Shown here piece after piece: positions 4,356 to 27,631 of a stretch of DNA of 32,000 nucleotides. The position numbers were made by a program, and so were the translations under genes. Under the pieces are notes generated by a model. That model did no database searches. It was not told the DNA's origin and saw only the letters and a program-made list of their open reading frames with translations. The DNA is from Candidatus Iainarchaeum sp. (GTDB lineage Archaea; Iainarchaeota; Iainarchaeia; Iainarchaeales; CSSED10-239): positions 1 to 32,000 of the forward strand of contig JAQVTI010000011.1 in NCBI GenBank assembly GCA_028700115.1, given 5' to 3'. Every line of letters begins with the position of its first letter. Positions within the stretch are counted from its first letter, which is position 1.

Positions 4356-4420
4356 ATTTATATATATTTGTATTTTTAATATAATTTTTTAAAATTTTAT
4401 AAATAATTTAGGTGAATAAT

Positions 4421-5449
4421 ATGTCAAATAAAAAACATAAAGAACATAATATAACAGAAAATAAATATAAAATAAATAAAAAAGAATTATTAGTTTGGCA
4501 AATCTTTGCTGCTATTTGTTTAGTTTTATTTATTGGGTCAATGGTTATTGTCTTAAATAATAACTCTAAAGTTGTAGATAATAAAGAAAAATCTCCAATG
4601 ACTGGAGAAATAATTTTAGCTCAAGATGATATGCAGAAAATCGCTGATTTAACAATTGAATTTTTAAAAGTAAATTTTAATATTACAGATTTAACACTTA
4701 ATAATGTTTCTGAAGAGAAAGGTCTTTTGAAAATGGATTTAGATATTTCAGGTCAAAAACTTTCAATTTATACAAGTCAAGATGGTGAGCTTTTATTTTT
4801 AAGTGAAGAACCAATCAATAAGACTGAATTTTTAGAAGAACTTGAAGCTCAAAAAGAACAAGAAAAAGCACAAGCTCAATCTATTGAAAAGGTAGAAAAA
4901 CCAAAAACTGAACTTTTTATTTGGTCATATTGTCCATATGGAGTTACTGCTCTTAGCCCTTTTGGTGAAGTTGTTTCTGTTTTAGGAGAAACTGTTGATG
5001 CTAAGGTTTATTTATATTATGCAGGGCATGGAGATTATGAAGCTCAACAAAATAAAATTCAAGCATGTATTCAAGATTTAGGTTATTCTGATAAATATTG
5101 GGACTTTGCAGTTGGTTTTTCAAATAATATTTATTCTAAATGTAGTGGAGATATCTCTTGTGATAAAGAAGAATCTATTGCATTAATGAATAGTTTAGGA
5201 ATTGATTCTGTTAAAGTTTTAGAATGTGTTGAAGCTAAAGGAGATGAATTAGTAAAAACACATGCAGATAAAGCAAAAGAATATGGTGTAACTGGATCAC
5301 CTAGTTTATTTGTAAATGGTGTGAAAGTTAATGTTGCAAGAAATGCTCAAGCTTTTAAAACAGTTATTTGTTCTGGATACTCTACTCAACCTGAAGCTTG
5401 TTCTCAAGTTTTAGATTCACAAGGAGCATCTGCAACTGGTAATTGTTAA
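4421..5449 (+). CDS. membrane-anchored DsbA-family thiol:disulfide oxidoreductase (thioredoxin fold)
   Basis: SD AGGTGA lies 5 nt upstream of ATG 4421 (the track's GTG at 4412 sits inside the SD). There is an N-terminal TM helix, a CPYG active-site motif (LFIWSYCPYGV) and a DsbA-type cis-Pro loop region (YGVTGSPSLFVNG). Confidence 0.75.
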   Translation: MSNKKHKEHNITENKYKINKKELLVWQIFAAICLVLFIGSMVIVLNNNSKVVDNKEKSPMTGEIILAQDDMQKIADLTIEFLKVNFNITDLTLNNVSEEKGLLKMDLDISGQKLSIYTSQDGELLFLSEEPINKTEFLEELEAQKEQEKAQAQSIEKVEKPKTELFIWSYCPYGVTALSPFGEVVSVLGETVDAKVYLYYAGHGDYEAQQNKIQACIQDLGYSDKYWDFAVGFSNNIYSKCSGDISCDKEESIALMNSLGIDSVKVLECVEAKGDELVKTHADKAKEYGVTGSPSLFVNGVKVNVARNAQAFKTVICSGYSTQPEACSQVLDSQGASATGNC

Positions 5450-6308: not shown

Positions 6309-6371
6309 ATACTTTTTTAAATACTTTTTAGGACATATATTATATAATTATTTTATATATGGGTGCTATTT

Positions 6372-6992
6372 ATGATTTATATTCCTGCTTGGCTTGCAAT
6401 TTTAGAAGTCTTAATCATATTTGTGCTTCCTGTTTTTTTAATGTATGAAAAAATCATACCCTTTAAGTACAGACTTCATACAATGGGTTTAATTGGACTT
6501 GCAGTTACTTCTTTAGTAGTTGTTCAGAAATGGACTTTAACAGATTTAGGAATTAGAGTAGATAACTTACAAGGGCATTTAGTGCCTTATGTTTTATTTA
6601 CAATTTTAATATCTATTGTAATTGTATATTTATCTAATACAGTTTTAAAAAGAACACATTACGTACATTATTGGACAGAAAAAAAGCATCATCTAAAATT
6701 TTTAATACCTAATTGTTTTTTACAAGAATTTTTATTTAGAGCTTTTTTAATACCTGTTTTATTTATATTTATAGATTCTTTATTTATTGTAGTTTTAGTT
6801 AACTCTATTCTTTTTATGTCAATTCATGTAATTTATTCAACTAAATTTATGGATTTATTATTTGTTTTTATAGAAGGTTTTTTATTTGCAACTATATTTA
6901 TTTTCTATCCTAATTTAATATTTATTACAATTGCACATTGTATTCATAATTATTTAGCTATATTTTATAAGTTTTTTGTGGATGAAAGGTGA
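6372..6992 (+). CDS. CPBP-family intramembrane glutamic endopeptidase (CAAX protease/Abi, bacteriocin-immunity type)
   Basis: Polytopic membrane protein with motif 1 QEFLFR (an EExxxR variant), motif 2 FMSIH and motif 3 HCIHN. ATG 6372 is preferred over GTG 6363 because GGTG at 6362-6365 then serves as the SD. Confidence 0.7.
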   Translation: MIYIPAWLAILEVLIIFVLPVFLMYEKIIPFKYRLHTMGLIGLAVTSLVVVQKWTLTDLGIRVDNLQGHLVPYVLFTILISIVIVYLSNTVLKRTHYVHYWTEKKHHLKFLIPNCFLQEFLFRAFLIPVLFIFIDSLFIVVLVNSILFMSIHVIYSTKFMDLLFVFIEGFLFATIFIFYPNLIFITIAHCIHNYLAIFYKFFVDER

Positions 6993-11223: not shown

Positions 11224-11252
11224 AATTAAAAATAATTTAAAAGGTGATTTTT

Positions 11253-11480
11253 ATGTCAAAAATTATAGTTTATTCAACACAATCTTGCCCTTATTGTGTA
11301 ATGGCAAAAGAATATTTAAAATCTAAAAACATTGAGTTTGAGGATGTAGATGTAGGACAAGATATGAATAGAGCTATGGAGATGATTCATAAATCTGGTC
11401 AACAAGGAGTTCCTGTAATTGATATTAATGGAAAAATAATAATTGGTTTTAATAAACCAGAAATAGATGCTTCTTTATAG
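11253..11480 (+). CDS. glutaredoxin/NrdH-like small redoxin
   Basis: It has a CPYC active site (IIVYSTQSCPYCVMAKEYL) and a GVPVI cis-Pro motif. SD AGGTGA lies 5 nt upstream of ATG 11253. Confidence 0.85.
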   Translation: MSKIIVYSTQSCPYCVMAKEYLKSKNIEFEDVDVGQDMNRAMEMIHKSGQQGVPVIDINGKIIIGFNKPEIDASL

Positions 11481-14304: not shown

Positions 14305-17300
14305 CTATTTTTTAAAATAAGATTCTTTTTTTTGTATAATATAAAAAGCACCAATAATTATAAATATATATAAAATTAACATCAAATTAGATTGTGGGCT
14401 TAAAGGTATATTAAAACCACTTGATTCACTTCCTGAATTTCCCCCTATATTTATATTCATAGGGTTTTGAGAAGTTGTACCTACAACTTTTCCATCTTCT
14501 CCTACTTGAAACATCATTCCGTCTTTAAAATCTGGATTAAATGGAATTAAATGTCCATTTTCTGTATACCAATTACCTGTGCTTGGATCATACCAAAAAG
14601 AACCATTTTTTCCTTGAGCAGAAAGTAAAGTTTCAAGTTCATCATTATATTGTAATCTTGGAACACCATCTTCTGCACTAAATTCAAAATTATGCTCTTT
14701 TCCATCTGCAGTTTTTATTATCATTCCATCTGGTGTTTCAATAATTTCATCAATTGCCTGATCAGTAATTATTTGTCCGGTTTCTTTATCAATTATTTTC
14801 ATCCTTTTTTCACATTCAGGAGGATCTCCTGTATAAAAAATAAATGTCTTTGTAGCTGTGTCGAAAATCTGGAAAGGACCAACATGTTCTAGTGCATCAT
14901 TCATTTCATCAGCTTTATTTTGAGCATCTGCACTATCTTTTTTACCTTTTACATCAAAATCTAATGCAAATTCTTCACAACCAGTTACCTCATTGTTATA
15001 ATTTACAACTTTTGTATCTAAATCTTCAATTTCAGATTGATGCATTGTATAAGTTTGTTCAACCCATAAAATATAACTATTTGTTTCTCCATTATATATC
15101 ATTTGTCCTCTTTCAAATTGAATAGCTATGTTTTGACCAACTCTTACATCTTGGTTATCAATTGGATACATTTTTGTAAATCTTTCTCCACCATAAACAG
15201 TAACTTTTGCAGCATTTCCTTTTGCTGATCTTCTAGGAACTCCTTCTGCTACAATCTCTATATTATTTTCAGATGTTTTTGGCATTATATCATATTGTGT
15301 AGTTGGGTTTGTGATATTTGTTGTTGTTAAAATTTTTGCAGAACCAAGATAATCTGTTAAAGAATTTCCTTGCATTGTAAGTCCTGTTTGTGATTCATAG
15401 TTTAGTTTAAAACAATCTAAAAATCCAACGTTTTCAATAGTTATATTTCCATAAGCATCCATTGTAAACAAAGGAACATTTGTGTCTGGAACTGGTATAT
15501 AACTTAGACTATGAGGAATTACTTTTGCAGGAATTCCTAAGTTAGTTGCAGTAAGTCTTACCCAGTCTTTGTGTTCTGAATCAATTATATTTTTAATAGT
15601 TCCATCTTCTGTTACAATTTCTATTTTTCCTTCATCTTTATCAATAACTAAAGTTTCATTTGTAGATGTATCTGTTAGATGTTCTACACCTTTGTCATTA
15701 TATGCACTTGCTCTACAAGTTGATTTTTCTCCAAGTTCAAAAAAATAAAGCATTCCTTTAACAGAAGCTGAAGTGTTTCCTATAGTTTCAAATCTAGATT
15801 GAACAATTGGGTTGTCTTTTATTTTTGTTTCTGCAAAATTTTCAACTTCTTTTGCAGCTTCACTTAAATTTTCTTTTAAAGTAGTTCCATCTGCCATGTT
15901 TGAAATATTTTTTTGAATTGCAGAAGCTCCGTTTGAAATTGCATCTCCTATTTTATTTTTAGGATCTTTTTCTATTCTTTCTTCTTCATTTTTAGAAACA
16001 AAAACATGTGTATAATAACCTTCTTCATCATCTACACAGTCTTGAACTTGTGGTGTGATTAATGTTTGAGGAATTAAATCTCCTAGAATAACTCCAAGAA
16101 TCATTCTGTGGCTTGGAGCAGAAATTGCATAATAAGCTAAATTACTTGTGATTGCAGAAACCATTCCTGCTCTGTAACTTTTTCCTGTCCATTTAGTTGT
16201 CCAACCAATAGGAACACCAATTAATTCAAGTTCATCTATTCTTTGGGAACATGTATCTCCATTATTTTTTGCATCAGTTAAAACTACTGTTTTATCATCA
16301 GTTTCTCCTGAGATTGATCCACCATAATCTGTATGATGAGAAAATGTAATTAAAGTTTTTCCTTCATCTTCTAGATTTTCTTCAGTTGTGTTTTCTAGTA
16401 AGTATGTAGGTACTGTAATTCCACCTGGAATACTATAAATTATTTGCATATCTTTAATAGGTTCTTGAGAAGAAACTTCTTCTATAGAAATATCTGTTTC
16501 TTCTAAATTTTCTTTTTGTGTTTCTAAGATCTTTTCTTTTAGAGCTGATTTTTCATAAGTTTGTTTTTCTAAAAGAGAAGAGTTTCCAAGTTTCACATAA
16601 CAATTATCATTACATCCGTAGTTTTCTGCATCTGTAAATAAAGCAACTTCATCAACTGTGCTTCTTCTAATATGTCCTTCTGTAATTTGTTTTATCCAAT
16701 CATCTACTGAATTTGTGAATTTAGAATCTACACTTTCAATTCCAAGTTTAGTCAAAGAAACCAAATAAAATAACATACTATTAAAATATTTTGAAAATAA
16801 ATCACCTTGATCAGAACCATCATTTACAAAGTAATCAATATATGCATCTTTGTAAATATCTCCATCTTCTCCGTGATTAATTAAAACTGATGTATATGTT
16901 TCTGGGATTTGATATGCACTATATTTACTTAGAGAATCTCCTATAAAAGGAAGAGATGCACCTGCTGTTTTCCATTCCCAATATGCCCAGTTTAGAGCAT
17001 ACGCATTTAGAGAATTTCCTAAAAGACTCATTGCTTGGTTTGTATGTTTCCCATTAACTGGAGCTTTCATTTGTTGGTTTATCCAGTTTATTCCTTTTCC
17101 AGAAACCCAGCCTTTATTGTTCATTACATCCATCATAGATGTATTTACTATACTTGCATCTTTAACCATTTTAGTTCCATCAGCAACATATGAATATGCA
17201 AGTTCAATTGGATCATATCCAAAATCTTTTGCATCTAATGGAGTTTCTTTTACTGGATACCATTTAAAATTTGCAAAACTTGGATCAACATCATCTAATT

Positions 17301-19296
17301 TAAAATCAGTTGCTTTTACTTGTTTCATTATTCCAGATTTATCTTGATATCCTATATAAATATTAGGGTTATTTGTATATTTGGAAAGATCTATTCTTTC
17401 TAAATATTCTCCCTTTGCCATATTAATTTCTTCTCTATAAACTGGTATTTTTTGTATTTTTCTAGTAACTCCATCAGAAAAAGTTACATCTACAGTTTCA
17501 GTTTTAACTGTTTTTGCACCCATTTCATACATACCTTTATCAGAATTATATTTAATTTCAAAAGCCTTATTTCCTCCACCAATATCTGTTATCTGTGAAG
17601 AGCTTGCTCCTGTTGTTGGTTGAACTTTGTTTGTCATAACAAGTTCTGTTTTTCCTGTAGTTGGATCTTTATAAAGTGTTTTTCTAGAAGTAATTATTGG
17701 ATTTTCATTTAAAGGTTTATCCCATTTAACAGCACTTTCTGTTAAATCATCAATTCTATTTGTTAAGTTTCTAACTTCTGTTGTTTGTTTCATTATAATA
17801 TCATAATCTGCACTTGAAAGATTTTTATAAATATCTCCTGCTTTAGAGTTTGGGTCTTCAATAATTTCTACTAATTTTTTTACAGCAGTATCATAATCTT
17901 TATTTTTTATTAAAGACTCTTGTATTGCTTGAGTCATTTTTAAATTATCTTGATATTTTTGTGCACTTTCAAATAAAACTCTTCTTTGTTGTTTTGTAAG
18001 TTTATCAAATTTTCCACCTTTTGAAAATTCTTTTGCAATTGTGTCTATATTTTTCTTTGAACTTAAAGCATTTGTATATGCTTTATATTCATCATATATA
18101 CCATATTGATCAACAACTTGTCTTATTTCTTTTTGAGTTGTTTTTAAATAACTTGTATAATTATCAATATTTTTTGAAGCATTTTTAAACTCAATTGATC
18201 TAGTTAAAGCCTTTAGAGGGTTGTCTCCTTCTGAAAGCATATTGTCAATAAATCCACCTTTTTTTGCATTTATCTTTTTAGAAATATCAAAACCTAATCT
18301 ATTTTTAGAAAAATTTCCAATATCCCCAAAAATCTTAGTTGCACCTTTCCATAAGAAAGGAGATGCTGAAGAAACAACTAAGTCTGCAGAGAAATATTGA
18401 TTAAACATTTTATCAAATAAAGAATAAACATTAATATAACAATTTTCACCTTGACAAGTAGTTTCCATACTTGCATTAAATGTTTGTGTTTTTATACTAT
18501 TTTCAATTGCATTTTCTAAAAGAACTTGAGATTTTTTCATTTCAAACTCAGTTGCATTTTCATCAAATTGAATACTTTTAATATATTCTAATTGTTCATA
18601 TGACATTTCAGAAAATATACCCATATCTTCACTAATTTCAAAATCTGCTTCTGGGTTTATTATATCTCCTGCTTCTTCTTTAATCTTATTAATACCTATC
18701 ATATCAAGCATATCTTTTCCAACAGATACAAATTCATCTTTAAAACCATTATTACCATTTTCTCTAAAAAGACCAACTTCTTCTAAATAACAAGGTTCAT
18801 TTTCATCTCCACTACATCTTCCAACTCTTAGAGTGTTTTCTAAATTTATACCATATGAAAAAGGGCCATAACATGCTTGACCTAAAAGTGCAGGCACTTC
18901 TAGAGGGTTAATTTCTTGATTTGGCATTTCTTGTTGCAGCACAACATCATTTGCCTTTGTGTCTTTATTTGTAAGTAATAAATCATTTTCTTCTAAAGTA
19001 TCTCTGTTTGTGTTTTCTTTTTGATCAGAACCAACTAAGTCTACTTTAAATCCAGAAACTAAAAGTTCATCCCATAATCTTTCTACACTTTCAGAATCTA
19101 GTTCTTGAGTAAAACACCCAGATCCAAAATCATCAATATTATTTATTTCTTCTAGATTAATAGAACAAGTTGAGTATAAAGTTTTATTTTCTTCTAATCT
19201 TGTTATATCTACATTAAATGCAAAAACTGAGTTTATAAACATTAAAAGAAAGAAAAAACTTATTAAATTAAAATATATTTTATTTTTATCAAGCAT
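14305..19296 (-). CDS. 1663-aa secreted giant surface protein with an N-terminal signal peptide and a C-terminal TM anchor; no recognisable domain
   Basis: The signal peptide is IYFNLISFFFLLMFINSVFA. The C-terminus is ..GGNSGSESSGFNIPLSPQSNLMLILYIFIIIGAFYIIQKKESYFKK. The sequence is non-repetitive, with many cysteines that often occur in close pairs. Confidence 0.9.
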   Translation of the reverse strand: MLDKNKIYFNLISFFFLLMFINSVFAFNVDITRLEENKTLYSTCSINLEEINNIDDFGSGCFTQELDSESVERLWDELLVSGFKVDLVGSDQKENTNRDTLEENDLLLTNKDTKANDVVLQQEMPNQEINPLEVPALLGQACYGPFSYGINLENTLRVGRCSGDENEPCYLEEVGLFRENGNNGFKDEFVSVGKDMLDMIGINKIKEEAGDIINPEADFEISEDMGIFSEMSYEQLEYIKSIQFDENATEFEMKKSQVLLENAIENSIKTQTFNASMETTCQGENCYINVYSLFDKMFNQYFSADLVVSSASPFLWKGATKIFGDIGNFSKNRLGFDISKKINAKKGGFIDNMLSEGDNPLKALTRSIEFKNASKNIDNYTSYLKTTQKEIRQVVDQYGIYDEYKAYTNALSSKKNIDTIAKEFSKGGKFDKLTKQQRRVLFESAQKYQDNLKMTQAIQESLIKNKDYDTAVKKLVEIIEDPNSKAGDIYKNLSSADYDIIMKQTTEVRNLTNRIDDLTESAVKWDKPLNENPIITSRKTLYKDPTTGKTELVMTNKVQPTTGASSSQITDIGGGNKAFEIKYNSDKGMYEMGAKTVKTETVDVTFSDGVTRKIQKIPVYREEINMAKGEYLERIDLSKYTNNPNIYIGYQDKSGIMKQVKATDFKLDDVDPSFANFKWYPVKETPLDAKDFGYDPIELAYSYVADGTKMVKDASIVNTSMMDVMNNKGWVSGKGINWINQQMKAPVNGKHTNQAMSLLGNSLNAYALNWAYWEWKTAGASLPFIGDSLSKYSAYQIPETYTSVLINHGEDGDIYKDAYIDYFVNDGSDQGDLFSKYFNSMLFYLVSLTKLGIESVDSKFTNSVDDWIKQITEGHIRRSTVDEVALFTDAENYGCNDNCYVKLGNSSLLEKQTYEKSALKEKILETQKENLEETDISIEEVSSQEPIKDMQIIYSIPGGITVPTYLLENTTEENLEDEGKTLITFSHHTDYGGSISGETDDKTVVLTDAKNNGDTCSQRIDELELIGVPIGWTTKWTGKSYRAGMVSAITSNLAYYAISAPSHRMILGVILGDLIPQTLITPQVQDCVDDEEGYYTHVFVSKNEEERIEKDPKNKIGDAISNGASAIQKNISNMADGTTLKENLSEAAKEVENFAETKIKDNPIVQSRFETIGNTSASVKGMLYFFELGEKSTCRASAYNDKGVEHLTDTSTNETLVIDKDEGKIEIVTEDGTIKNIIDSEHKDWVRLTATNLGIPAKVIPHSLSYIPVPDTNVPLFTMDAYGNITIENVGFLDCFKLNYESQTGLTMQGNSLTDYLGSAKILTTTNITNPTTQYDIMPKTSENNIEIVAEGVPRRSAKGNAAKVTVYGGERFTKMYPIDNQDVRVGQNIAIQFERGQMIYNGETNSYILWVEQTYTMHQSEIEDLDTKVVNYNNEVTGCEEFALDFDVKGKKDSADAQNKADEMNDALEHVGPFQIFDTATKTFIFYTGDPPECEKRMKIIDKETGQIITDQAIDEIIETPDGMIIKTADGKEHNFEFSAEDGVPRLQYNDELETLLSAQGKNGSFWYDPSTGNWYTENGHLIPFNPDFKDGMMFQVGEDGKVVGTTSQNPMNINIGGNSGSESSGFNIPLSPQSNLMLILYIFIIIGAFYIIQKKESYFKK

Positions 19297-19316
19297 ATTT
19301 ATTACCTATTTAATTT

Positions 19317-19808
19317 TCATACAAAAATTATAAACAATATCATAGCGATTAATTTTGGAAAAATTATATTTATTATAATTAATATTAGACAAGCAATTGA
19401 AGTTGAAAATAATAATGGTAAAAAATTAATTTCTTTTTTAGACTTATTAAACTTATCATAAAATAAACTTATAATAAATGCAAATACTAGTAAAATACCT
19501 GCAATTAATATATTTGTTATAATTAATCTAAACAAATGTAATATTATAAAAAACAAACCTTCAAAGAAAGTATATTGAAAATCAATTGAAATTGTTGGAA
19601 TAAAATAAATTCCTAGAATTATTACTAATGAAACTAAATAAATAGTTACAAACATAGAAATTAAAAAACTTTTTTTCTTATTTATTTTTTTAAATAAAAA
19701 TTTAAATAAGTATACAAAAAGAATTATTGGTAAAGAAATTAATACACTAACTCCATATAGTTTTATAAAAAACCAAATATAATTAAATATTGTAGAAAGT
19801 ATATTCAT
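19317..19808 (-). CDS. 163-aa polytopic membrane protein (about 5 TM), immediately upstream of the giant gene
   Basis: Almost entirely hydrophobic helices. A 20-nt gap separates it from the giant ORF on the same strand. Confidence 0.7.
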   Translation of the reverse strand: MNILSTIFNYIWFFIKLYGVSVLISLPIILFVYLFKFLFKKINKKKSFLISMFVTIYLVSLVIILGIYFIPTISIDFQYTFFEGLFFIILHLFRLIITNILIAGILLVFAFIISLFYDKFNKSKKEINFLPLLFSTSIACLILIIINIIFPKLIAMILFIIFV

Positions 19809-19948: not shown

Positions 19949-20701
19949 ATGGAATTTATGAATAAATCTGATATTATTAGAAGAGAGAGAAGACACTATA
20001 GAAGATATGTAAATGGAAATATAGTGTATGAACCAGCTCCTGTTGATGGGCATAAAGAAAGTACTTATGATAATAAGTTTAAAAATAATTATAAAATGAA
20101 AAAAGAAGAAGGAAGAATTACAAGTCTTGCTGAATTAGCTGATGAAAATATAAAAACAAAGTTTCCTAAAAAAGATCAAGTTATTGAAAAAACTTTACAT
20201 GAATTATCAGATATGATAAATCCTGATTCTTCAGAAATTGCAGATGCTTTATATAATCAATTTAAGAATACTGCATTAAATATTAAACAACAAGAAATAA
20301 AAAAAGCAATTGATAATAATAAACATTTTAGAGCAAGTAGTGATCAAAATAAAAATTTAGAAATAAAAGATATAAAAGCAGTTGTTGAAGATGTTTATGT
20401 TCAAGTTGAAAAAGAAGCAATCAAGAATAAGTCTATAGAAAAGGATAAAAGTGATGTAAAAGAAGCAATCACAAAAGAAATTTCTAAAGATAAAAATAAA
20501 TCTTTTAAAAAAGAAGAACCAAAAGAAGAAAAAACTTCTATAAGATCTAGAAAAAAATCTATAGAAAAAGAAGAAGTTAAAGAAATTAAACCTTCTAAGA
20601 AAAAAGAAAAAGTTTCTGGAAATGATCTTTTTGGTGATAATGATTTAGATTTAGATGATAATGATTTAGATTCTGATGATGATTTAGGACTTAAATTTTA
20701 A
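19949..20701 (+). CDS. 250-aa K/E-rich, probably disordered protein with a strongly acidic C-terminal tail
   Basis: It has an Arg-rich N-terminus (IIRRERRHYRRY), long KE-rich tracts and the tail ..GNDLFGDNDLDLDDNDLDSDDDLGLKF. Confidence 0.6.
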   Translation: MEFMNKSDIIRRERRHYRRYVNGNIVYEPAPVDGHKESTYDNKFKNNYKMKKEEGRITSLAELADENIKTKFPKKDQVIEKTLHELSDMINPDSSEIADALYNQFKNTALNIKQQEIKKAIDNNKHFRASSDQNKNLEIKDIKAVVEDVYVQVEKEAIKNKSIEKDKSDVKEAITKEISKDKNKSFKKEEPKEEKTSIRSRKKSIEKEEVKEIKPSKKKEKVSGNDLFGDNDLDLDDNDLDSDDDLGLKF

Positions 20702-20720: not shown

Positions 20721-21506
20721 TTAATCATTATAAATTTTACAATTTAATTTTTCTAATTCTTTTTGAGCTATGCTTTTATTAGCTGGCCAAATTGCAAAAG
20801 TTGAAGTTATTTCTAATTCAGTTTCATCTCTACCTTCTTTTGCAGTAAAAGTTAAAGGAACAGAAGAAGCATGTATATCATTTGCTTTTGAAATAACTTC
20901 TCTTATATCATTATAATTTAAAGGATCGCATAAATAATATTTTGAAAGACCCATATTTATATCATTTAATTTATAGGTTTTATTAGAATCATTTTCTGAG
21001 TTTTCAAAATCAGTTATTTTTAACATAATATATTCAAATTTTTGATCATTTGTATTATATAAATAAAAAGTAAAATCATAACTAGGAAGAGGCATCATAA
21101 CTGATTTTATTGTGTGAAATAAATTATATTTTGCAATATCATCAGGATTTGACACATCTGGATTTGGAATATCTTCATCTATTGGATTAAACATATAATT
21201 TAAATCACCAGAACCTATATGTTTATCAGGATAAAAATCTGTTTTTACTGCTGTCATTAGATAATCAATTTCTTCACTTTCAAATATGTTTTTATTATAA
21301 TCTAAAGGAATTTCTGAATAAAATATAGTTTTTAAAGCAGAATTTGAATATTCTTTAAAATATAAATTATTTATTGCAAGATCTACTCTATCTCCATAGC
21401 TTGCTGAATATTTAAAAAGCATTACAGTTAGAACTATAATTATTGTTAAGAAAAATAAAGCATCTGTAATTGCAGCTTGTGCTTTTTGTCTTTTTAATTT
21501 ATTCAT
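20721..21506 (-). CDS. pilin-like protein with class III signal peptide (261 aa)
   Basis: The N-terminus is MNKLKRQKAQAAITDALFFLTIIIVLTVMLF. It is the last gene of the pilus-like operon. Confidence 0.75.
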   Translation of the reverse strand: MNKLKRQKAQAAITDALFFLTIIIVLTVMLFKYSASYGDRVDLAINNLYFKEYSNSALKTIFYSEIPLDYNKNIFESEEIDYLMTAVKTDFYPDKHIGSGDLNYMFNPIDEDIPNPDVSNPDDIAKYNLFHTIKSVMMPLPSYDFTFYLYNTNDQKFEYIMLKITDFENSENDSNKTYKLNDINMGLSKYYLCDPLNYNDIREVISKANDIHASSVPLTFTAKEGRDETELEITSTFAIWPANKSIAQKELEKLNCKIYND

Positions 21507-21529
21507 ATTTTTTCAAAATTTATTTTTAT

Positions 21530-22087
21530 TTATTCCCATACAGCAACATATAGCCTTACAGGAACTGCATGATATTCTATTTGTAAATTAATAGGGTAAA
21601 CATAAACTAAGACTTTATGTTTTTCATCTTGGGTTTTTACTTTTGTTTTAAATTTATCTAAATTTTTAGAAGTATTTGGACAGTAAAATATATTTTGTTC
21701 TGAATTTGGATCATATATATTTTCATCTAGAACAATTATTTGTGTATTATCTTCATCATTTGTTAATAGAAATTCTAAATCTACCTCATTGTAATTATCT
21801 AAATCTTGGGGTAGGTCTATTAAAAAGGCAGTCCAGTTTCTGTTTGTGTTTACTTTATTACATATGTTTGTAAAATGATTATAATCTATTATAACTGGTT
21901 CTGATCTTAAAGTCATAGAAATATCTATTGCATCTTGATGTAAATCAAAGTTTTGAGTTTCTGTTTTATAATTATTATATGTGCTTAAAAATACTGAAAA
22001 AAAAATTAATAGACCTATGAATATAGGTATTAGACTTGGAAGATCATCCCCTATTGCACCAATATAACCTTTTTGTTTTTTTTTCAT
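21530..22087 (-). CDS. pilin-like protein with class III signal peptide (about 185 aa)
   Basis: The start is preferred at MKKKQKGYIGAIGDDLPSLIPIFIGLLIFF (ATG 22087), which overlaps the upstream gene's end by 9 nt. Confidence 0.7.
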   Translation of the reverse strand: MKKKQKGYIGAIGDDLPSLIPIFIGLLIFFSVFLSTYNNYKTETQNFDLHQDAIDISMTLRSEPVIIDYNHFTNICNKVNTNRNWTAFLIDLPQDLDNYNEVDLEFLLTNDEDNTQIIVLDENIYDPNSEQNIFYCPNTSKNLDKFKTKVKTQDEKHKVLVYVYPINLQIEYHAVPVRLYVAVWE

Positions 22088-22094
22088 ATTTAAT

Positions 22095-22763
22095 CTAACC
22101 ATTATTAGGTTCATTATATTCATTTATACAAATATCTACAGACTTACAACTTACATCTTCAAACATAGAATCATCGCAAACTATCTTTTTACATGTAAGA
22201 ATACCATTTTGTTTTGCACAAGGCAATATATAATAATTGTCTTGTCCTTCTATTTTATTTTTGATTAGAATAAGAGTAGAATCATTACTTTTTACTCTTA
22301 ATGTATCATATATTCCATAATCTTGTTTAGAACTCCAATTACTACTATTATCATATGGATGCTCTGCATTATAAAAGGTAAAATCTCCATTAAAATCTAT
22401 ATCATATGCACCATATATTTTATCTTGTTTTTGATTTAAAATAGATATGACTAGTTTTTTATTATAATTATTTTCTGGATTTTCTTTTTCAAGTTCCATA
22501 ATATTTAGGACATATGCTTTGTTAAATGTAGTAGTTGAGCTTTGTCCACTTTTAATTCTTGTTGGGATATCTATATATTTGATAGAGCAATAACTCTCAC
22601 TATCTGTAATTAATTTAATATCTCTACCTATATTATAAGCTAATTCATAACTTTGTCTAGTTTGTAGATTTGAATTTACTGTATTCATAAAAAAAAGAAT
22701 AATTGCAGCAATTGCTGTTGCAAATAAAAGCATATTAAGTTTTGATAAAGCAAATTCAAACAT
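22095..22763 (-). CDS. pilin-like protein lacking a charged leader (222 aa, Cys-rich C-terminus)
   Basis: MFEFALSKLNMLLFATAIAAIILFF begins directly with the hydrophobic segment. Seven Cys are present, six of them in the last 40 residues. Confidence 0.65.
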   Translation of the reverse strand: MFEFALSKLNMLLFATAIAAIILFFMNTVNSNLQTRQSYELAYNIGRDIKLITDSESYCSIKYIDIPTRIKSGQSSTTTFNKAYVLNIMELEKENPENNYNKKLVISILNQKQDKIYGAYDIDFNGDFTFYNAEHPYDNSSNWSSKQDYGIYDTLRVKSNDSTLILIKNKIEGQDNYYILPCAKQNGILTCKKIVCDDSMFEDVSCKSVDICINEYNEPNNG

Positions 22764-22778
22764 TTTTTAATCACTAAT

Positions 22779-23393
22779 TTATTTTTTTCTTAAAAGACAA
22801 ATTTGTATATTACTTGAATTTGTATTTGTCTTTTTAAACATTCTATATTTTCCAGGAGGAAGACCTATTGGAGATCCATCAGATGAATCTTTTGGATTCC
22901 ATACTTGCCATAAATCTTCAGATATTTCATCTTCAGATAAGCATTCATCAGGAGTTGTTGCAAAATTTATAGTTGTTGGAAGATGTGTGCAGATTGGTTC
23001 AATTGGATATTTATAATCAAAAGTATCTTTATCTTCATAAGTATATTCTAATAATAAACAACTATCTCCCCCACCACAATAAGTTCCGCATTTTCCTTTA
23101 TCATCATATGCATTAAGTCTTACATATTCATATCTTTGATTAAAACACGCTTTTGTATCTAAAGATATATTTCTAATTACTAGATCTGAGCCTAAGACAA
23201 CATCTCTTAGAGAAGAATTAAAATTACTAAGTTCTTCTTTTTTATCTCCAAGGCATGTGCTTTGTTGTAAATTTTTAAGAGCATAAGTTCCTGCTAGAAT
23301 AACAAAACCCATAATTATGATTGCAACTAGAAGTTCAAAAGGAGCACCTATTTGTGCTTTTTGTTTATTATATTTTTTTTTAACAAATATCAT
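22779..23393 (-). CDS. Cys-rich pilin-like protein with class III signal peptide (204 aa)
   Basis: The N-terminus is MIFVKKKYNKQKAQIGAPFELLVAIIIMGFVIL. There are eight Cys, including GKCGTYCGGGDSC. Confidence 0.75.
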   Translation of the reverse strand: MIFVKKKYNKQKAQIGAPFELLVAIIIMGFVILAGTYALKNLQQSTCLGDKKEELSNFNSSLRDVVLGSDLVIRNISLDTKACFNQRYEYVRLNAYDDKGKCGTYCGGGDSCLLLEYTYEDKDTFDYKYPIEPICTHLPTTINFATTPDECLSEDEISEDLWQVWNPKDSSDGSPIGLPPGKYRMFKKTNTNSSNIQICLLRKK

Positions 23394-23429
23394 ATTATAA
23401 AGATAGTATAAAGTATTAAAAAAACTTTT

Positions 23430-23481
23430 GTTTTTATTTAGAAAAACAAGAAAAAGAAAATAGTTTAAAATAAACTATTTT
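23430..23481 (-). terminator. AT-rich hairpin plus T-rich tract after the mini-pilin gene
   Basis: aaatagttt (23458-23466) pairs with aaactattt (23472-23480). On the minus strand it is followed by TTTTCTTTTTCTTGTTTTTC. It lies in the 87-nt gap before the next pilin-like gene. Confidence 0.35.
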
Positions 23482-23678
23482 TATTCAGAAGTTACTGTTT
23501 GGTTTGGAAGATTTGCTTTTTGAGAAGACGCTTTTACTGATTTATTAAACATAGGCTTAACTACTGCAATTAGAATAATTGCAATAATTGCAACAATTAT
23601 TATCATAAATATAGAATTTGACTCACCTTGAGCTTTTTCTTCATTTATGAATTTAATAAATTCTTTTTTTAATCTCAT
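23481..23678 (-). CDS. 65-aa mini-pilin (class III signal peptide plus a short tail)
   Basis: MRLKKEFIKFINEEKAQGESNSIFMIIIVAIIAIILIAVVKPMF..; the predicted mature part is only about 49 aa. Confidence 0.7.
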   Translation of the reverse strand: MRLKKEFIKFINEEKAQGESNSIFMIIIVAIIAIILIAVVKPMFNKSVKASSQKANLPNQTVTSE

Positions 23679-23707
23679 ATCTTCTCAAAAACCATTTTTA
23701 ATTAAAT

Positions 23708-24238
23708 CTATATTTTCTTAGGGAAAATTACACAAACTGTGGCATCTGTTTCTCCAAACTCTTCATATGTGTCTAATTCTACTAAATCATAATCATTAAT
23801 AATTTTAATTAGAGAGTTAGAACTATCTGCACATAAAATACCAAATTTAAATTTTGTATTTTCAGAACTTTTCATTTTTAAAGTCTTTCCAGTTGTATAT
23901 GTATCACTAGAACCAATTGCAAAGAAATTATCATTTCCTGCTATGTCAAAATATACTTGATTAGAATCAATTCCAGTTCCTGCAACTATTGAAGATGTTG
24001 AAACAAATTCAGTGTTTTTTGAAGAAACTTTTACTTCGTCTGTATAAGCTAAATTCCCATAATTAGAAACTTGTGTTTTTAGAGTTGTATTAATTGAATC
24101 AGTTACATCTCCACCAATATTTATGTTTTTTGTAATCATTGGAAGAAGTACTCCTAAAATTGCAAGAGCAACAACAGCTGCAATTAATAATTGAAATGTA
24201 GAAAAGGCTTGTCCTTTTTCTTTTAATTTATTAAACAT
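23708..24238 (-). CDS. candidate major pilin with class III signal peptide (176 aa)
   Basis: The N-terminus is MFNKLKEKGQAFSTFQLLIAAVVALAILGVLL. It has the best SD in the locus (AGGAGG, 7 nt upstream) and follows a 110-nt intergenic gap. Confidence 0.8.
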   Translation of the reverse strand: MFNKLKEKGQAFSTFQLLIAAVVALAILGVLLPMITKNINIGGDVTDSINTTLKTQVSNYGNLAYTDEVKVSSKNTEFVSTSSIVAGTGIDSNQVYFDIAGNDNFFAIGSSDTYTTGKTLKMKSSENTKFKFGILCADSSNSLIKIINDYDLVELDTYEEFGETDATVCVIFPKKI

Positions 24239-24245
24239 TTTTTTT

Positions 24246-24251
24246 CCTCCT
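24246..24251 (-). promoter_or_regulatory. Shine-Dalgarno site (AGGAGG) of the candidate major pilin
   Basis: Plus-strand cctcct at 24246-24251, 7 nt from the ATG at 24238. Confidence 0.6.
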
Positions 24252-24348
24252 AATAAAAAATTAAATAACTTTTTTTATTAAATATAATATATAACTAATA
24301 TTAAAGAAAATCAAAACTTATTTAAATATTTTTATTTTCTTCATTTTC

Positions 24349-24846
24349 TTAAATTATTAGATAAATGTAATTTATTGTGTAAGTAATTATACTTGGAATA
24401 ACTAACATAAATATGATGTCTCTTAATTTAATATGTGTATCTATTTCATTATATTCTATTATGTTTGAATTATATTTACTTTTAGAATATTTTATTTTTT
24501 TATTTAAAACTAATAAGTTCCAAAAAGTTCCAAATAAAACCGCATTAATTACCCAGACTAAGATAATTTTTGTAATTGGATTAACTATTTTATTTATTAA
24601 ATTCCAAGATATTAAAGTTATAAAAATACTTAAAAAACTAGAAAATAACATATAAAAAAACAATTTAAAATTTTTATTTGCAAAAAGATAGAGTCCTTTT
24701 GTAAAAAACATACTTATTATAAAAAATATTGTCATTAAAGCTATAATTATACCTATAACTAAAAGAATAATTGTACCAAACAAATAACCACAAACTAGAA
24801 TAATTATTGCAAATAAAAAATATTTTAATGTGTTTTTTAAATTCAT
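24349..24846 (-). CDS. 165-aa polytopic membrane protein within the pilus-like operon
   Basis: It has 4-5 hydrophobic helices and starts 2 nt after the upstream pilin-like gene's stop. No GxGD or Asp motifs are present, so it is not a prepilin peptidase. Confidence 0.65.
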   Translation of the reverse strand: MNLKNTLKYFLFAIIILVCGYLFGTIILLVIGIIIALMTIFFIISMFFTKGLYLFANKNFKLFFYMLFSSFLSIFITLISWNLINKIVNPITKIILVWVINAVLFGTFWNLLVLNKKIKYSKSKYNSNIIEYNEIDTHIKLRDIIFMLVIPSIITYTINYIYLII

Positions 24847-24848
24847 AT

Positions 24849-25379
24849 TTAATTGCCTTCCTTATATATTTCATCAGGAGCATTTTTGTTTAGAAATAAA
24901 ACAATAAATTTTTCACAATCCTCTGTGTTTTTTTCTAATAAATTATAAATACTAGAAGGTTCATCTGAATTTGAGATATTACAATAAATAGTTACATCCA
25001 TATCTAAGTTTCTTTCAGTAATTTCATAAATTAATTCATTTGATTCTGCAATAGGTTCAATTCCTGGACCATTATCTATACCTATACATCCTTTTTCAAT
25101 ACCAGTTATTCCAGAAATCCATTCTTTTGAAATTGTGCCCTTTAATTTTAAATCTTCAATAATATATTTACTTTGTGTACTTATTCCAGGAGCTTTACTT
25201 GCAGAAATAATTCCTTCTTCTAATTTTTGTTGACTAATAATAATTGCTTTATTATTAATATTTCTAACCATTACTAAAATAATAGAAAGAATAGCAACAG
25301 TTATTACAAAAGCAATTAAAAGTCTAAAAGATTCTTCAGCTTGAGCTTTTTGTTTTTTTGTAAATAAATTAAAATCCAT
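24849..25379 (-). CDS. pilin-like protein with class III signal peptide (176 aa)
   Basis: The N-terminus is MDFNLFTKKQKAQAEESFRLLIAFVITVAILSIILV. An 11-nt gap follows the platform gene. Confidence 0.75.
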   Translation of the reverse strand: MDFNLFTKKQKAQAEESFRLLIAFVITVAILSIILVMVRNINNKAIIISQQKLEEGIISASKAPGISTQSKYIIEDLKLKGTISKEWISGITGIEKGCIGIDNGPGIEPIAESNELIYEITERNLDMDVTIYCNISNSDEPSSIYNLLEKNTEDCEKFIVLFLNKNAPDEIYKEGN

Positions 25380-25390
25380 ATTAATTAACC

Positions 25391-27631
25391 TTAAAATATC
25401 ATATTTGCAAGAATTGTTGTAATTATAAATAATATTGTTGCAATTGGTAAAGTTCTTGCAATATTTAATTTAGCAAGAGTAATGTTGTCTTGTTCTATCA
25501 TAGTTGTAAAAAATGTTATAATGATTACAACTTGAATAACATAGATTGCAACAATTATTAAAAAGGCTGTAGGAGAAGCAAGTTGAGAAATTACAGTAGT
25601 ATCAATTGAACCCATACTACTAATTGAACTTGCATTAACATTTACACCAATTGCACTAACCCCATCTTTTACACCTTCAATTGCAGAAGTCATATCTTCC
25701 ATTGTATTACTGTTTGCAATTGAATAAAGTGTAGAAATTACAATTTTTTGAAGAGCTGTAGTTATTCCTAAAACTATAGGGGCAATAAATTTAGACATGC
25801 TTTTTAGAGTTGTTGTTACAGAACTAATTAAGTCTCTTAACATTTTAGAAACTTCATCAGTGTTTCTTAACTGCAGAGAGTATGACATTAATGTTTTTGC
25901 AGCAACTGAAACTCCTAACTGAACAGAATCTACTAAAAGTCTCATAGCTGAATTAATAAGATTAGAAGGATTATTTTTAAGAGCACCATAACTTGGATCA
26001 AACAAAGCTGAATTTAAATTAAGTCCTAAAACTCTTATGTTATCAATTGCTTTTCCAAATATGTTTTTAGAAATTAAAGCTTTTGGTAAAAAGTTTTTTG
26101 TATGACTTAAAGCATCTTCAATTGGTTTGTTTTCACCAAGTCTACTTGCAATTACATATAGTGCATCTTTAAATTCGTCTTCCATTTTTTCAGTTTCTAA
26201 TTGTATTTCTCTTTTATATTTACTTTGAGAATATAAGACTATAGAAATTAATAAACTAATTAAGATTAACATTCCATAAATTATATAATGAGGAGTAATA
26301 TCATTTTCTGATCTTGCCCAAAACTCTTGTTCTGAAGCACATTTAAATTCAGAATCTGCTGCTTTTTCAACTTGTTCTGCTTTTGTACAATAAAAATCTG
26401 CTTCACTTATTTCTTGACTATCTGTAATATAACCAGATTGAATAAGTATACTTTTTTTAGTTTGACCAAACTCAGATTGTAAAAATACACTTCCTGCAAT
26501 TAAAATTACACTTACTATAATTATTAAAATACCTATATGTAAATGAGCTTTTCCTATTTTTATTGTGTTTTTAGGAGGAAGCTTTGGGTAATTGTCTGGT
26601 ATTTTAGGAGGTCTGTAAGTAGAAGGTTTGTTTCTTATTATCTTTTTTGCATAAAACAAACAACCTATAGGAATAATTATATTATATATTAAAATTAAAT
26701 AAATTGGTTTTGCAAGAGCAGAACCTGAAAAAGCAGAACCAACTGGTAGAACAATAATTAAAAGTAAAGGAAGTAATACCCCTAAATAAAAAATACCCAT
26801 TGCTGGTTGTGCTAAACTTCTTGCATAATCTTCTAGTTTTTCTTTTATGGATTTTAAAGTCTCAGACATTGTTTGATCTAAGATTTGATATCTTTTTGCC
26901 TCTGAGTTTTCTATAACAGAAGACCTTATTTTCATTAAAGCTTTTTTAAACTCAGTAGAAACTTCTCCCCATTTATAGGCAAGTTCATCTATTCCTTCAG
27001 AAACACTGTTTTTTATACCTACTTTAACTTCCCATAATAATTTTTTTAAATCATCTGCAATTTTTCCATGTCCATGATTTGAAGCAAACTCAATTGCTTT
27101 TTCTAAATTTGGAACTAATTTCATAGACATTATCATATATCCTAAAATTTCTGGAACAAAAGTTAATGCTAAAATTTTTTCAGATTGTACTTTTTTTAAA
27201 GGATAATTTTGAAAATTTATATAAATTATTATAAAAATAAATATTGGAAGAATAAAAGTAATTATAATAGGCATTATAATTATATCAAATAAAGAAAATA
27301 ATAAATCATAACCAAATAAATATATTAAATAACTAATAAGACCTGTAAGAAAAATACCAAAAAAAAGAATAAATTTTAAAGTAGCAGAATATTCTTTTCC
27401 AGATAAATCCCAATTAAGAAAATCAACTGCATTTTTTAAATCTGGTCTAAAAGAAGAATTATTACCAAGACTAGGAAATTTATTATATATTTTTTTACAA
27501 AAAATAACATAATAATTTTGTTTTTTTCTTTCTAATTTATTTATATTTTTAGAAAAATCTCTACTTTCTATAGATATTGAACTATATATTTTTCCAGGAC
27601 TTGTTTTTGGGGGTCTTATTATATCAGACAT
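25391..27631 (-). CDS. FlaJ/TadC/PilC-like polytopic membrane platform protein (746 aa)
   Basis: Two soluble helical modules (..PNLEKAIEFASNHGHGKIADDLKKLLWEVKVGIKNSVSEGIDELA.. and ..FKDALYVIASRLGENKPIEDALSHTKNF..IDNIRVLGLNLNSAL..) are each flanked by TM clusters. That is the duplicated T2SSF-type arrangement. It is the first gene of the pilin operon. Confidence 0.65.
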   Translation of the reverse strand: MSDIIRPPKTSPGKIYSSISIESRDFSKNINKLERKKQNYYVIFCKKIYNKFPSLGNNSSFRPDLKNAVDFLNWDLSGKEYSATLKFILFFGIFLTGLISYLIYLFGYDLLFSLFDIIIMPIIITFILPIFIFIIIYINFQNYPLKKVQSEKILALTFVPEILGYMIMSMKLVPNLEKAIEFASNHGHGKIADDLKKLLWEVKVGIKNSVSEGIDELAYKWGEVSTEFKKALMKIRSSVIENSEAKRYQILDQTMSETLKSIKEKLEDYARSLAQPAMGIFYLGVLLPLLLIIVLPVGSAFSGSALAKPIYLILIYNIIIPIGCLFYAKKIIRNKPSTYRPPKIPDNYPKLPPKNTIKIGKAHLHIGILIIIVSVILIAGSVFLQSEFGQTKKSILIQSGYITDSQEISEADFYCTKAEQVEKAADSEFKCASEQEFWARSENDITPHYIIYGMLILISLLISIVLYSQSKYKREIQLETEKMEDEFKDALYVIASRLGENKPIEDALSHTKNFLPKALISKNIFGKAIDNIRVLGLNLNSALFDPSYGALKNNPSNLINSAMRLLVDSVQLGVSVAAKTLMSYSLQLRNTDEVSKMLRDLISSVTTTLKSMSKFIAPIVLGITTALQKIVISTLYSIANSNTMEDMTSAIEGVKDGVSAIGVNVNASSISSMGSIDTTVISQLASPTAFLIIVAIYVIQVVIIITFFTTMIEQDNITLAKLNIARTLPIATILFIITTILANMIF

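Follow-up and report, generated by a model that had tools for sequence, protein, structure and literature searches.

A gene for a 1663-residue exported and membrane-anchored protein, together with a smaller membrane-protein gene directly upstream of it, lies beside a type IV pilus (T4P) locus in a 32,000-nucleotide stretch of Candidatus Iainarchaeum sp. (GenBank assembly GCA_028700115.1, contig JAQVTI010000011.1, positions 1 to 32,000; hereafter the window, contig C25 in our numbering). The larger protein, here called the giant, is the product of a near-universal core gene restricted to its lineage, the phylum Iainarchaeota. Moreover, we propose, with a probability of about 0.5, that the giant and its 163-residue neighbour, the partner, form an anchored surface complex associated with the pilus, which may act as a fixed T4P accessory, as a support in the envelope or as an adhesive partner. 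This proposal draws on synteny that holds across the phylum, on an evolutionary rate like that of the pilins and on published precedent.

The window belongs to the genome of a Forterrea-like Iainarchaeote (965 kb in 47 contigs, 89% complete, about 22% G+C). The giant is matched in 200 of 215 Iainarchaeota genomes, mostly by a single match per genome, and is thus no isolated curiosity. It is found in all 58 genomes with a completeness of 90% or more; the 15 genomes without a match are, without exception, only 55–86% complete, and a few fragmented assemblies split the gene. Of 41 relatives sampled, 40 have it, representing 20 families and all 24 genera, and a search with the family alignment against one genome per GTDB species yielded 176 confirmed loci, titled Iainarchaeum, Diapherotrites or 'archaeon' and including Candidatus Forterrea multitransposorum (CP045477; the genus of the window), archaeon GW2011_AR10 and Iainarchaeum andersonii. 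Full-length orthologues measure 1390–1770 residues throughout the phylum, and when 1.84 billion cluster representatives were searched with a profile of the last 720 residues, only 221 matched, all of them sharing the architecture of the giant. In contrast, three other large proteins of the genome that combine a signal peptide with a C-terminal anchor (one with fn3, two without recognisable domains) are conserved solely within the family, and are fragmentary or absent elsewhere in the order. In a second genome of the genus (G002), the orthologue (C1:454120-457165) of a 1168-residue anchored surface protein encoded in the genome of the window (C40:20284-23790) is disrupted by several in-frame stops, although the giant is intact there. 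Five open reading frames (ORFs) of the genome are longer than the giant (1836–2638 residues; Table 1), several of them with N-terminal hydrophobic segments.

The pair and the pilus genes are conserved together across related genomes, as the synteny comparison proposed in the initial annotation has shown, and the pair is found in all close relatives. In 14 loci from different families, partner and giant invariably lie one or two genes from an operon of pilin-like genes, and in the majority of the distant families a T2SSE ATPase gene and two T2SSF (TadB/TadC-like) genes lie on the other flank. Of 41 loci with 5 kb or more of upstream sequence, 38 have at least three pilin-like families 1.3–4.1 kb away, and the remaining three carry pilus motor genes; of 33 loci with as much sequence downstream, 24 have ATPase, TadB or TadC. 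Three genomes from other orders of the class retain the full arrangement, that is, a PilC-like platform gene, five to seven pilin-like genes, a divergent gene, the partner, the giant and the TadC/TadB/ATPase genes. Because this arrangement is intact in other orders, the giant lies in the middle of the ancestral pilus supercluster. The link to the pilus locus that had been noted for the window is therefore real but stronger than the adjacency then described; the distance of 0.9 kb to the pilin operon is also right, except that the gap is occupied by a divergent gene for a 250-residue protein. Furthermore, the giant diverges at a pace like that of the pilins (about 48% identity within the genus and about 30% across the order), whereas the neighbouring lysyl-tRNA synthetase retains about 70% within the genus.

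Both ORFs, the five hydrophobic segments of the partner and the 20-nucleotide gap lie where the initial annotation had placed them, and the signal peptide, Gly/Ser spacer, hydrophobic helix (residues 1636–1655) and KKESYFKK tail that it had read in the giant are all found (Table 1). The N-terminus (MLDKNK...NSVFA/FN, the slash marking the cleavage site) is an ordinary Sec signal, with a family-mean hydropathy peak of 2.07 at residues 11–29 and the consensus FFLxLFxNSxFA, and a class III (prepilin) signal was rejected. The ectodomain that follows, of about 1600 residues, is acidic (isoelectric point 4.6). The last 700 residues are the best conserved, followed by residues 60–320 and 760–900; conservation is lowest at 180–260, at 330–700 and in the linker at about 901–960, where the gap fraction reaches 0.85 (residues 921–940). 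The helical bundle and its beta insert are the most variable part of the protein, and the membrane-proximal beta-rich domain is both the best conserved and the best predicted. The near-invariant motifs include YSLFDKMFNQYF, DAYIDFFANDGSDQGDLF, HHTDY, CVDDEEGYYTH and NGSFWYDPxTGNWYTENG. In the acidic motif DAYIDYFVNDGSDQGDLF, D821, F823, G827, S828, G831, D832 and F834 are invariant in the family alignment; the 20-residue span at this motif has the second highest conservation in the giant (0.77, after 0.80 at residues 1561–1580), and a role in cation binding is possible. The helical hairpin at residues 1038–1085 (45 residues), which is kept in 61 of 61 orthologues, has a median best 19-residue hydropathy of 1.41, exceeds 1.6 in 17 of the 61 and is strongly transmembrane-like in none; AlphaFold2 models it as two helices with a predicted local distance difference test score (pLDDT) of about 56–64. 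Two further candidate transmembrane segments, at 755–785 and 835–856, were discarded, their hydropathy being too low in every orthologue. The G+C content of the gene is at the 93rd percentile, the excess coming from first codon positions while G+C at third positions is ordinary; this points to amino-acid constraint, and a foreign origin of the gene was rejected on the same grounds.

Twelve of the 15 cysteines of the giant (C61, C161, C169, C281, C286, C895, C899, C1016, C1087, C1295, C1440 and C1495) are kept in 54–61 of the 61 orthologues. The motifs from which close cysteine pairs had first been read are in place (TTCQGENCY at residue 279, YGCNDNCY at 893 and GRCSGDENEPCY at 159). The pairs are thus genuine and conserved, but the protein is not rich in cysteine, which makes up 0.90% of its residues, the mean for the proteome being 1.12%. 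The predicted disulfide pairs are C161–C169, C281–C286 and C895–C899; six orthologues lack both C281 and C286, a joint replacement that fits such a pair. Within 10 kb of the giant, the window also encodes a glutaredoxin (11244-11480, plus strand) and a membrane-anchored DsbA/thioredoxin-like protein with weak Pfam matches (4412-5449, plus strand), the latter a candidate for making the disulfides of the ectodomain; VKOR was not found in the genome.

The description of the giant as domain-less and non-repetitive stands. Sequence searches of Pfam, NCBIfam and the PDB were empty for the giant alone and for the family profile, as were those of Pfam and NCBIfam for 20 members singly, none of which matched a Pfam family at E <= 0.01. 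An Nsp1_C match to the giant (E = 0.031) was rejected as noise, and PDB 7rdr, a designed repeat protein that aligned over 40 residues, as a compositional match. Self-BLASTP returned the identity match only, and comparison of the beta-rich region with itself by hhalign revealed no repeats (best off-diagonal E = 0.075). AlphaFold2 models of the two halves, built with 60–61 orthologues, differ in confidence. The C-terminal half has a mean pLDDT of 79, with 83–97 over the beta-rich domain of about 440 residues (1165–1607), which is followed by the terminal helix. The N-terminal half averages 68 and is confident over the helical bundle and beta insert (about 366–690; 84–94 over about 366–526 and 70–94 over 541–686) and low to moderate elsewhere, including residues 60–320. 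The segment-wise modelling and Foldseek search that had been suggested gave no credible match: with the undivided C-terminal model, only weak resemblances to beta-propellers (PDB) and to propellers and tail fibres (BFVD) were returned, at a template modelling score (TM-score) of at most 0.12 and a probability of at most 0.54, and with the N-terminal model nothing was found in the PDB at E <= 0.1, flagellin-like matches of that half (E >= 0.15) being rejected. None of these Foldseek results (PDB, and BFVD for the C-terminal model) pointed clearly to a fusogen, an S-layer protein, a pilus protein or an enzyme, and no homology to a known surface-layer (S-layer) or adhesin family emerged. With the PilY1/PilC-type adhesins and the DUF2341 proteins of Methanococcus Epd-type pilus loci, the giant shares its large size, its place at a pilus locus, a signal peptide and a beta-rich C-terminus. 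The weak fold matches of the giant are to beta-propellers, the C-terminal fold of PilY1 (PDB 3HX6). No propeller repeats were detected by hhalign, and 20 family members had no DUF2341 or PilY1 Pfam match; moreover, PilY1 is soluble and associated with the pilus tip, whereas the giant has a C-terminal membrane anchor.

The C-terminus follows a fixed pattern. Across 61 orthologues, a low-complexity spacer is followed by [FL]-[NS]-[LI]-P-x-x-P-[EQ], then by two to four residues, a helix of about 20 residues and a K/R-rich tail. The looser form h-x-h-P-x-x-P occurs within the last 60 residues of 59 of the 61 orthologues, and the strict form in 48. The Gly/Ser-rich spacer of the giant is disordered (pLDDT 31), the helix has a family-mean hydropathy peak of 2.25 and exceeds 1.6 in 59 of 61 orthologues, and the tail contains a median of four K/R among the last 15 residues. 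The giant is the sole carrier of the juxtamembrane motif in its genome. When five near-complete genomes were scanned with a back-translated pattern of the motif, its combination with a C-terminal transmembrane helix and a basic tail was limited to the giant in four (G004, G035, G036 and G179). In the fifth (G022), the giant has Ser for Asn and was missed by the pattern; a further ORF there, some 95 residues long (C2:103189-103209), has an end like the anchor signal of the giant (NIPGMPE, a transmembrane helix and a K-rich tail).

This layout invites comparison with the known sorting signals (LPXTG/sortase, PEP-CTERM/exosortase, PGF-CTERM/archaeosortase and GlyGly-CTERM/rhombosortase), which likewise consist of a short motif, a transmembrane helix and a basic tail, preceded by a flexible low-complexity spacer; in addition, a membrane protein is encoded beside the giant. 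The differences are several. The families for exosortase/archaeosortase (PF09721), sortase (PF04203) and rhomboid (PF01694) had no match in the 89%-complete genome under conditions in which the controls matched, the control search for rhomboid being positive in 14 of 14 reference genomes. An NCBIfam scan of the giant returned no family at E <= 0.1, and thus no curated C-terminal sorting-domain model. Moreover, the giant is one target per genome, and the partner has no conserved catalytic-type residue. The lack of a sorting enzyme, of a model match and of catalytic conservation in the partner argues against reading the motif as a sorting signal. Enzymes of the CPBP/Rce1 family process some bacterial C-terminal sorting signals. 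A CPBP/Rce1-like intramembrane protease of 209 residues, with five transmembrane segments, is encoded about 7 kb from the giant (6363-6992, plus strand), and a conserved linkage of this gene to the giant is not seen beyond the genus.

The partner is a regular companion of the giant. An ORF of about 175–180 residues with four to six transmembrane segments lies directly upstream of the giant, on the same strand, in about 44 of 51 loci, which bears out the pairing with a small polytopic protein first noticed in the window. By a crude Kyte–Doolittle scan, the partner of the window has five hydrophobic segments, with four to six across the orthologues, and K-rich loops follow its first transmembrane segment and its third hydrophobic block. 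Spacers between partner and giant are 11–23 nucleotides long within the family; in the window, the 20-nucleotide spacer contains a Shine–Dalgarno-like AGGT, which suggests that the two genes are co-transcribed and that the giant has a ribosome-binding site of its own. A scan for promoters and terminators, with bacterial models applied to AT-rich archaeal DNA, returned 50 sites against 48.5 expected. In an alignment of 31 partner sequences no residue is invariant and no polar or catalytic position is conserved, be it Cys, His, Ser, Asp or Glu. The partner has no Pfam or PDB match, and the only relatives found in the database are 11 proteins, all labelled Iainarchaeota/Diapherotrites. A sortase- or protease-like enzyme was therefore rejected, there being neither conserved catalytic-type residues nor a family match, and the partner is most likely a structural, non-enzymatic membrane partner of the anchor region.

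More distant homologues, of 1200–1700 residues, form a weaker tier of profile matches and are labelled Micrarchaeota by their submitters, Norongarragalinales included. Profile comparison (hhalign probability 98.5–99.3%) indicates that they share only the C-terminal module with the giant, namely the beta domain, WYDPxTGxWY, the spacer, h-x-[LV]-P-S-x-P-[ED], the transmembrane helix and the basic tail. One of them, P0177 (1432 residues; contig span 10001-14299), adjoins a divergent ftsZ and lies 3 kb from sepF, among housekeeping genes; at a second such locus, the gene upstream encodes an 82-residue protein with two transmembrane segments and a weak match to the partner profile (E = 7e-4). The C-terminal module thus behaves like a conserved anchor or stalk close to the membrane, able to bear distal parts of different kinds.

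We propose that cleavage of the signal peptide leaves an ectodomain tethered to the cell membrane and stabilised by up to six conserved disulfides, the tether consisting of the flexible Gly/Ser spacer, the juxtamembrane motif, a single transmembrane helix and the basic cytoplasmic tail. The beta-rich domain would then lie beside the membrane and the variable half, with its helical bundle and beta insert, would point outward. The partner, made together with the giant, would most likely dock onto the anchor region without acting as an enzyme, and the pair probably cooperates with the pilus on the surface of the cell, whether by supporting the filament, or forming a collar around it, at the level of the envelope or by serving as its adhesive partner. 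Several observations weigh against such a tie to the pilus. The pair forms a transcription unit separate from the pilin operon, with one or two divergent genes in between, and in the family of the window the motor genes have been relocated, four T2SSE genes being on other contigs. The giant has no similarity to a known pilus component by sequence or structure, and a C-terminal transmembrane anchor is ill-suited to a tip adhesin. Finally, the loci of the Micrarchaeota-labelled homologues have no T4P genes within 10 kb, and the anchor module is therefore not intrinsically pilus-dependent.

The last observation is also in keeping with the idea, raised in the initial annotation, that the giant is an S-layer protein; it would then be the main S-layer-type envelope protein of Iainarchaeota, held by its C-terminal helix and forming the outer protein coat of the cell, and its place beside the pilus genes would reflect only the need of pili to cross or attach to that coat. 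Halobacterial S-layer glycoproteins have a signal peptide, a large acidic ectodomain, a spacer and a C-terminal hydrophobic anchor, and the layout of the giant, with its Ser/Gly spacer and basic tail, fits such membrane-anchored archaeal proteins. A near-universal, mostly single-copy gene is what this role would lead one to expect, AglB is present in the genome, and no S-layer domain of the MSTP type is detectable there (PF07752 unmatched; Methanosarcina control positive). Nevertheless, we find this explanation, the main rival of a pilus-associated complex, unlikely, and no positive support for it emerged. The likeness to the S-layer glycoprotein of Haloferax volcanii, which extends to the signal peptide, the acidic ectodomain, the Ser/Gly- or Thr-rich spacer and the C-terminal hydrophobic anchor, ends there: the giant lacks Ig-like and MSTP domains, sequon enrichment, PGF-CTERM and an archaeosortase, and it has cysteines and a helical-bundle half. 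The proposed glycosylation check found 18 sequons in the giant, against 17.4 +/- 3.9 expected from composition, with a median z of -0.06 over the 61 orthologues and only two moderately conserved sites. No Ig-like, beta-sandwich or MSTP/DUF1608 domain was found in the giant, and its twelve conserved cysteines are atypical of S-layer proteins. The three other anchored signal-peptide proteins of the genome are equally possible candidates. In addition, MSTP-like S-layer proteins have been reported from Micrarchaeota in a survey of S-layers (bioRxiv 10.1101/2024.05.28.596244), so the homologues labelled as belonging there are probably something else.

The shared C-terminal module admits a further explanation, in which module and partner constitute an undescribed surface-anchoring system of DPANN archaea with one client per genome, the partner recognising the juxtamembrane motif (of the [NS]-L-P-S-L-P-E type) and holding or handing over the giant; in Iainarchaeota the resulting complex would provide the envelope base of the pilus. 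We regard this as rather doubtful; if true, an anchoring system would be common to Iainarchaeota and the Micrarchaeota-labelled lineages, and the pilus would act on surfaces or host cells through it. Improbable, in our view, is a device for symbiotic cell contact and membrane remodelling, in which the distal half would bind the host and the hairpin and anchor would engage two membranes, loosely in the manner of a fusogen. The hairpin is indeed universal among the orthologues, long helical segments accompany the C-terminal anchor, sequence variation is greatest in the distal region and Forterrea is predicted to be symbiotic (PMC5905446). However, the hairpin is only moderately hydrophobic, contains conserved charged residues and may be a buried core, and no viral or cellular fusion protein was matched by the C-terminal model (PDB and BFVD) or by the N-terminal model (PDB). 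Moreover, not all members of the Iainarchaeota are thought to be host-dependent, and the giant is universal in the phylum. Least credible of all is a surface-anchored enzyme, a hydrolase or lyase acting on polysaccharide or protein through a propeller-type catalytic domain with an Asp/Glu/His active or metal site. Invariant acidic and histidine motifs (HHTDY, CVDDEEGYYTH and DGSDQGD) exist, and the weak Foldseek matches are mostly beta-propellers, sialidase and virginiamycin B lyase folds among them, but these matches have the very low scores given above, blade-like repeats are absent by hhalign, the conserved motifs lie mainly outside the confident beta domain and none of the 20 members matched a Pfam or NCBIfam enzyme family.

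A pilus-associated anchored complex also has precedent. Among the extra components described for archaeal T4P loci are 'S-layer-like' proteins and adhesins that are large, anchored at the C-terminus and equipped with conserved cysteines, a C-terminally anchored large protein in Thermoproteales loci being one example (Makarova, Koonin and Albers, 2016; PMC4858521); the term 'S-layer-like' used there also lends something to the S-layer explanation. Like those proteins, the giant is large and exported, has a C-terminal transmembrane helix and conserved cysteines, lies in or beside a T4P cluster and has a function predicted from context. Unlike them, it has no detectable homology beyond its own family, is phylum-wide and has a dedicated partner and a specific motif; a divergent gene also stands between it and the pilin operon, and its distant homologues are pilus-free. 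The giant family is thus a new and unnamed one, in a category known from computational prediction only. What we add are the juxtamembrane motif, the absence of a sorting enzyme, the non-enzymatic partner, the joint loss of C281 and C286, the contrast with the other anchored proteins of the genome and the pilus-free, Micrarchaeota-labelled homologues that share the anchor module alone.

The features are collected in Table 1. In the pilus operon of the window, the platform protein has a T2SSF match (E = 0.0019) that falls under the gathering threshold of Pfam, and the N-termini of the pilin-like proteins are legible (KRQKA/QAAITD and KKQKG/YIGAIG, with K-[AG]-Q/Y junctions). The divergent RRERRHYR gene is conserved at its position, between the pair and the pilin operon, within the family; other families have a different divergent gene there, often with C-terminal zinc ribbons and sometimes with transmembrane segments, and it may be a regulator of the locus. 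A class II lysyl-tRNA-synthetase-type gene lies downstream of the giant on the same strand, and the order in the genus and family is the divergent RRERRHYR gene, the partner, the giant and the lysyl-tRNA synthetase gene. Elsewhere in the window, an 822-residue protein (1849-4317, plus strand) consists almost entirely of repeats of the recently defined 'Decapeptide' type (PF25296, E = 4e-166, 11 stretches).

Table 1. Features of the giant gene, its partner and the adjoining pilus locus (positions in the window unless a contig is named; residues are those of the giant)
Feature	Position	Strand	Basis or remark
Giant gene, including stop codon	14305..19296	(-)	ORF list; 1663-residue type I membrane protein
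Sec-type signal peptide, residues 1-26	19219..19296	(-)	K4/K6 n-region, hydrophobic core, NSVFA/FN cleavage region
Conserved N-terminal region, residues 60-320	18337..19119	(-)	C61, C161-C169 hairpin, C281-C286 hairpin, invariant YSLFDKMFNQYF helix start
Distal helical bundle (~293-520) and inserted beta domain (~541-686)	17227..18420	(-)	AlphaFold2 model; conservation map
Near-invariant acidic motif DAYIDYFVNDGSDQGDLF, residues 817-834	16795..16848	(-)	Family alignment
Variable gap-rich linker, residues ~901-960	16417..16596	(-)	Lies between the conserved N-terminal and C-terminal blocks
Moderately hydrophobic helical hairpin, residues 1038-1085	16042..16185	(-)	Hydropathy over 61 orthologues; AlphaFold2
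Invariant CVDDEEGYYTH, residues 1087-1097	16006-16038	(-)	Follows the hairpin
Membrane-proximal beta-rich domain, residues ~1165-1607	14476..15804	(-)	C1295, C1440, C1495, NGSFWYDPxTGNWYTENG
Juxtamembrane motif FNIPLSPQ, residues 1628-1635	14392..14415	(-)	Aligned C-termini of 61 orthologues
C-terminal transmembrane helix 1636-1655 and basic tail KKESYFKK 1656-1663	14308..14391	(-)	Hydropathy
Partner-giant spacer, 20 nucleotides	19297..19316	(-)	Shine-Dalgarno-like AGGT 9-12 nucleotides before the ATG of the giant
Partner gene, 163-residue polytopic membrane protein	19317..19808	(-)	ORF list; 5 hydrophobic segments
Divergent gene, 250-residue Cys-free K/E-rich protein	19949..20701	(+)	RRERRHYR N-terminal motif, acidic DDNDLDSDDDLGLKF tail
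Pilus operon: 746-residue FlaJ/TadC/PilC-like platform, seven pilin-like proteins, small polytopic protein	20721..27631	(-)	
ORFs larger than the giant	C22:894-8810, C2:42966-50309, C27:212-7189, C2:32964-39431, C2:26566-32076		Genome of the window

The Iainarchaeota, like other DPANN archaea, have not been brought into culture; their genomes are tiny, they are presumed to live attached to other cells or in company with them, and little is known of their surface machinery. In genomes of about 1 Mb, essentially the whole phylum has kept a 180-kDa protein beside its pilus genes, with a fold unlike those that have been solved, and this makes the giant a prime target for studies of envelope construction in these cells and of their attachment to surfaces or partners. 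Concrete, testable handles on that question are provided by the anchor motif and the dedicated partner, and a name and a profile for the family would bring consistent annotation to hundreds of proteins now listed as 'hypothetical proteins'.

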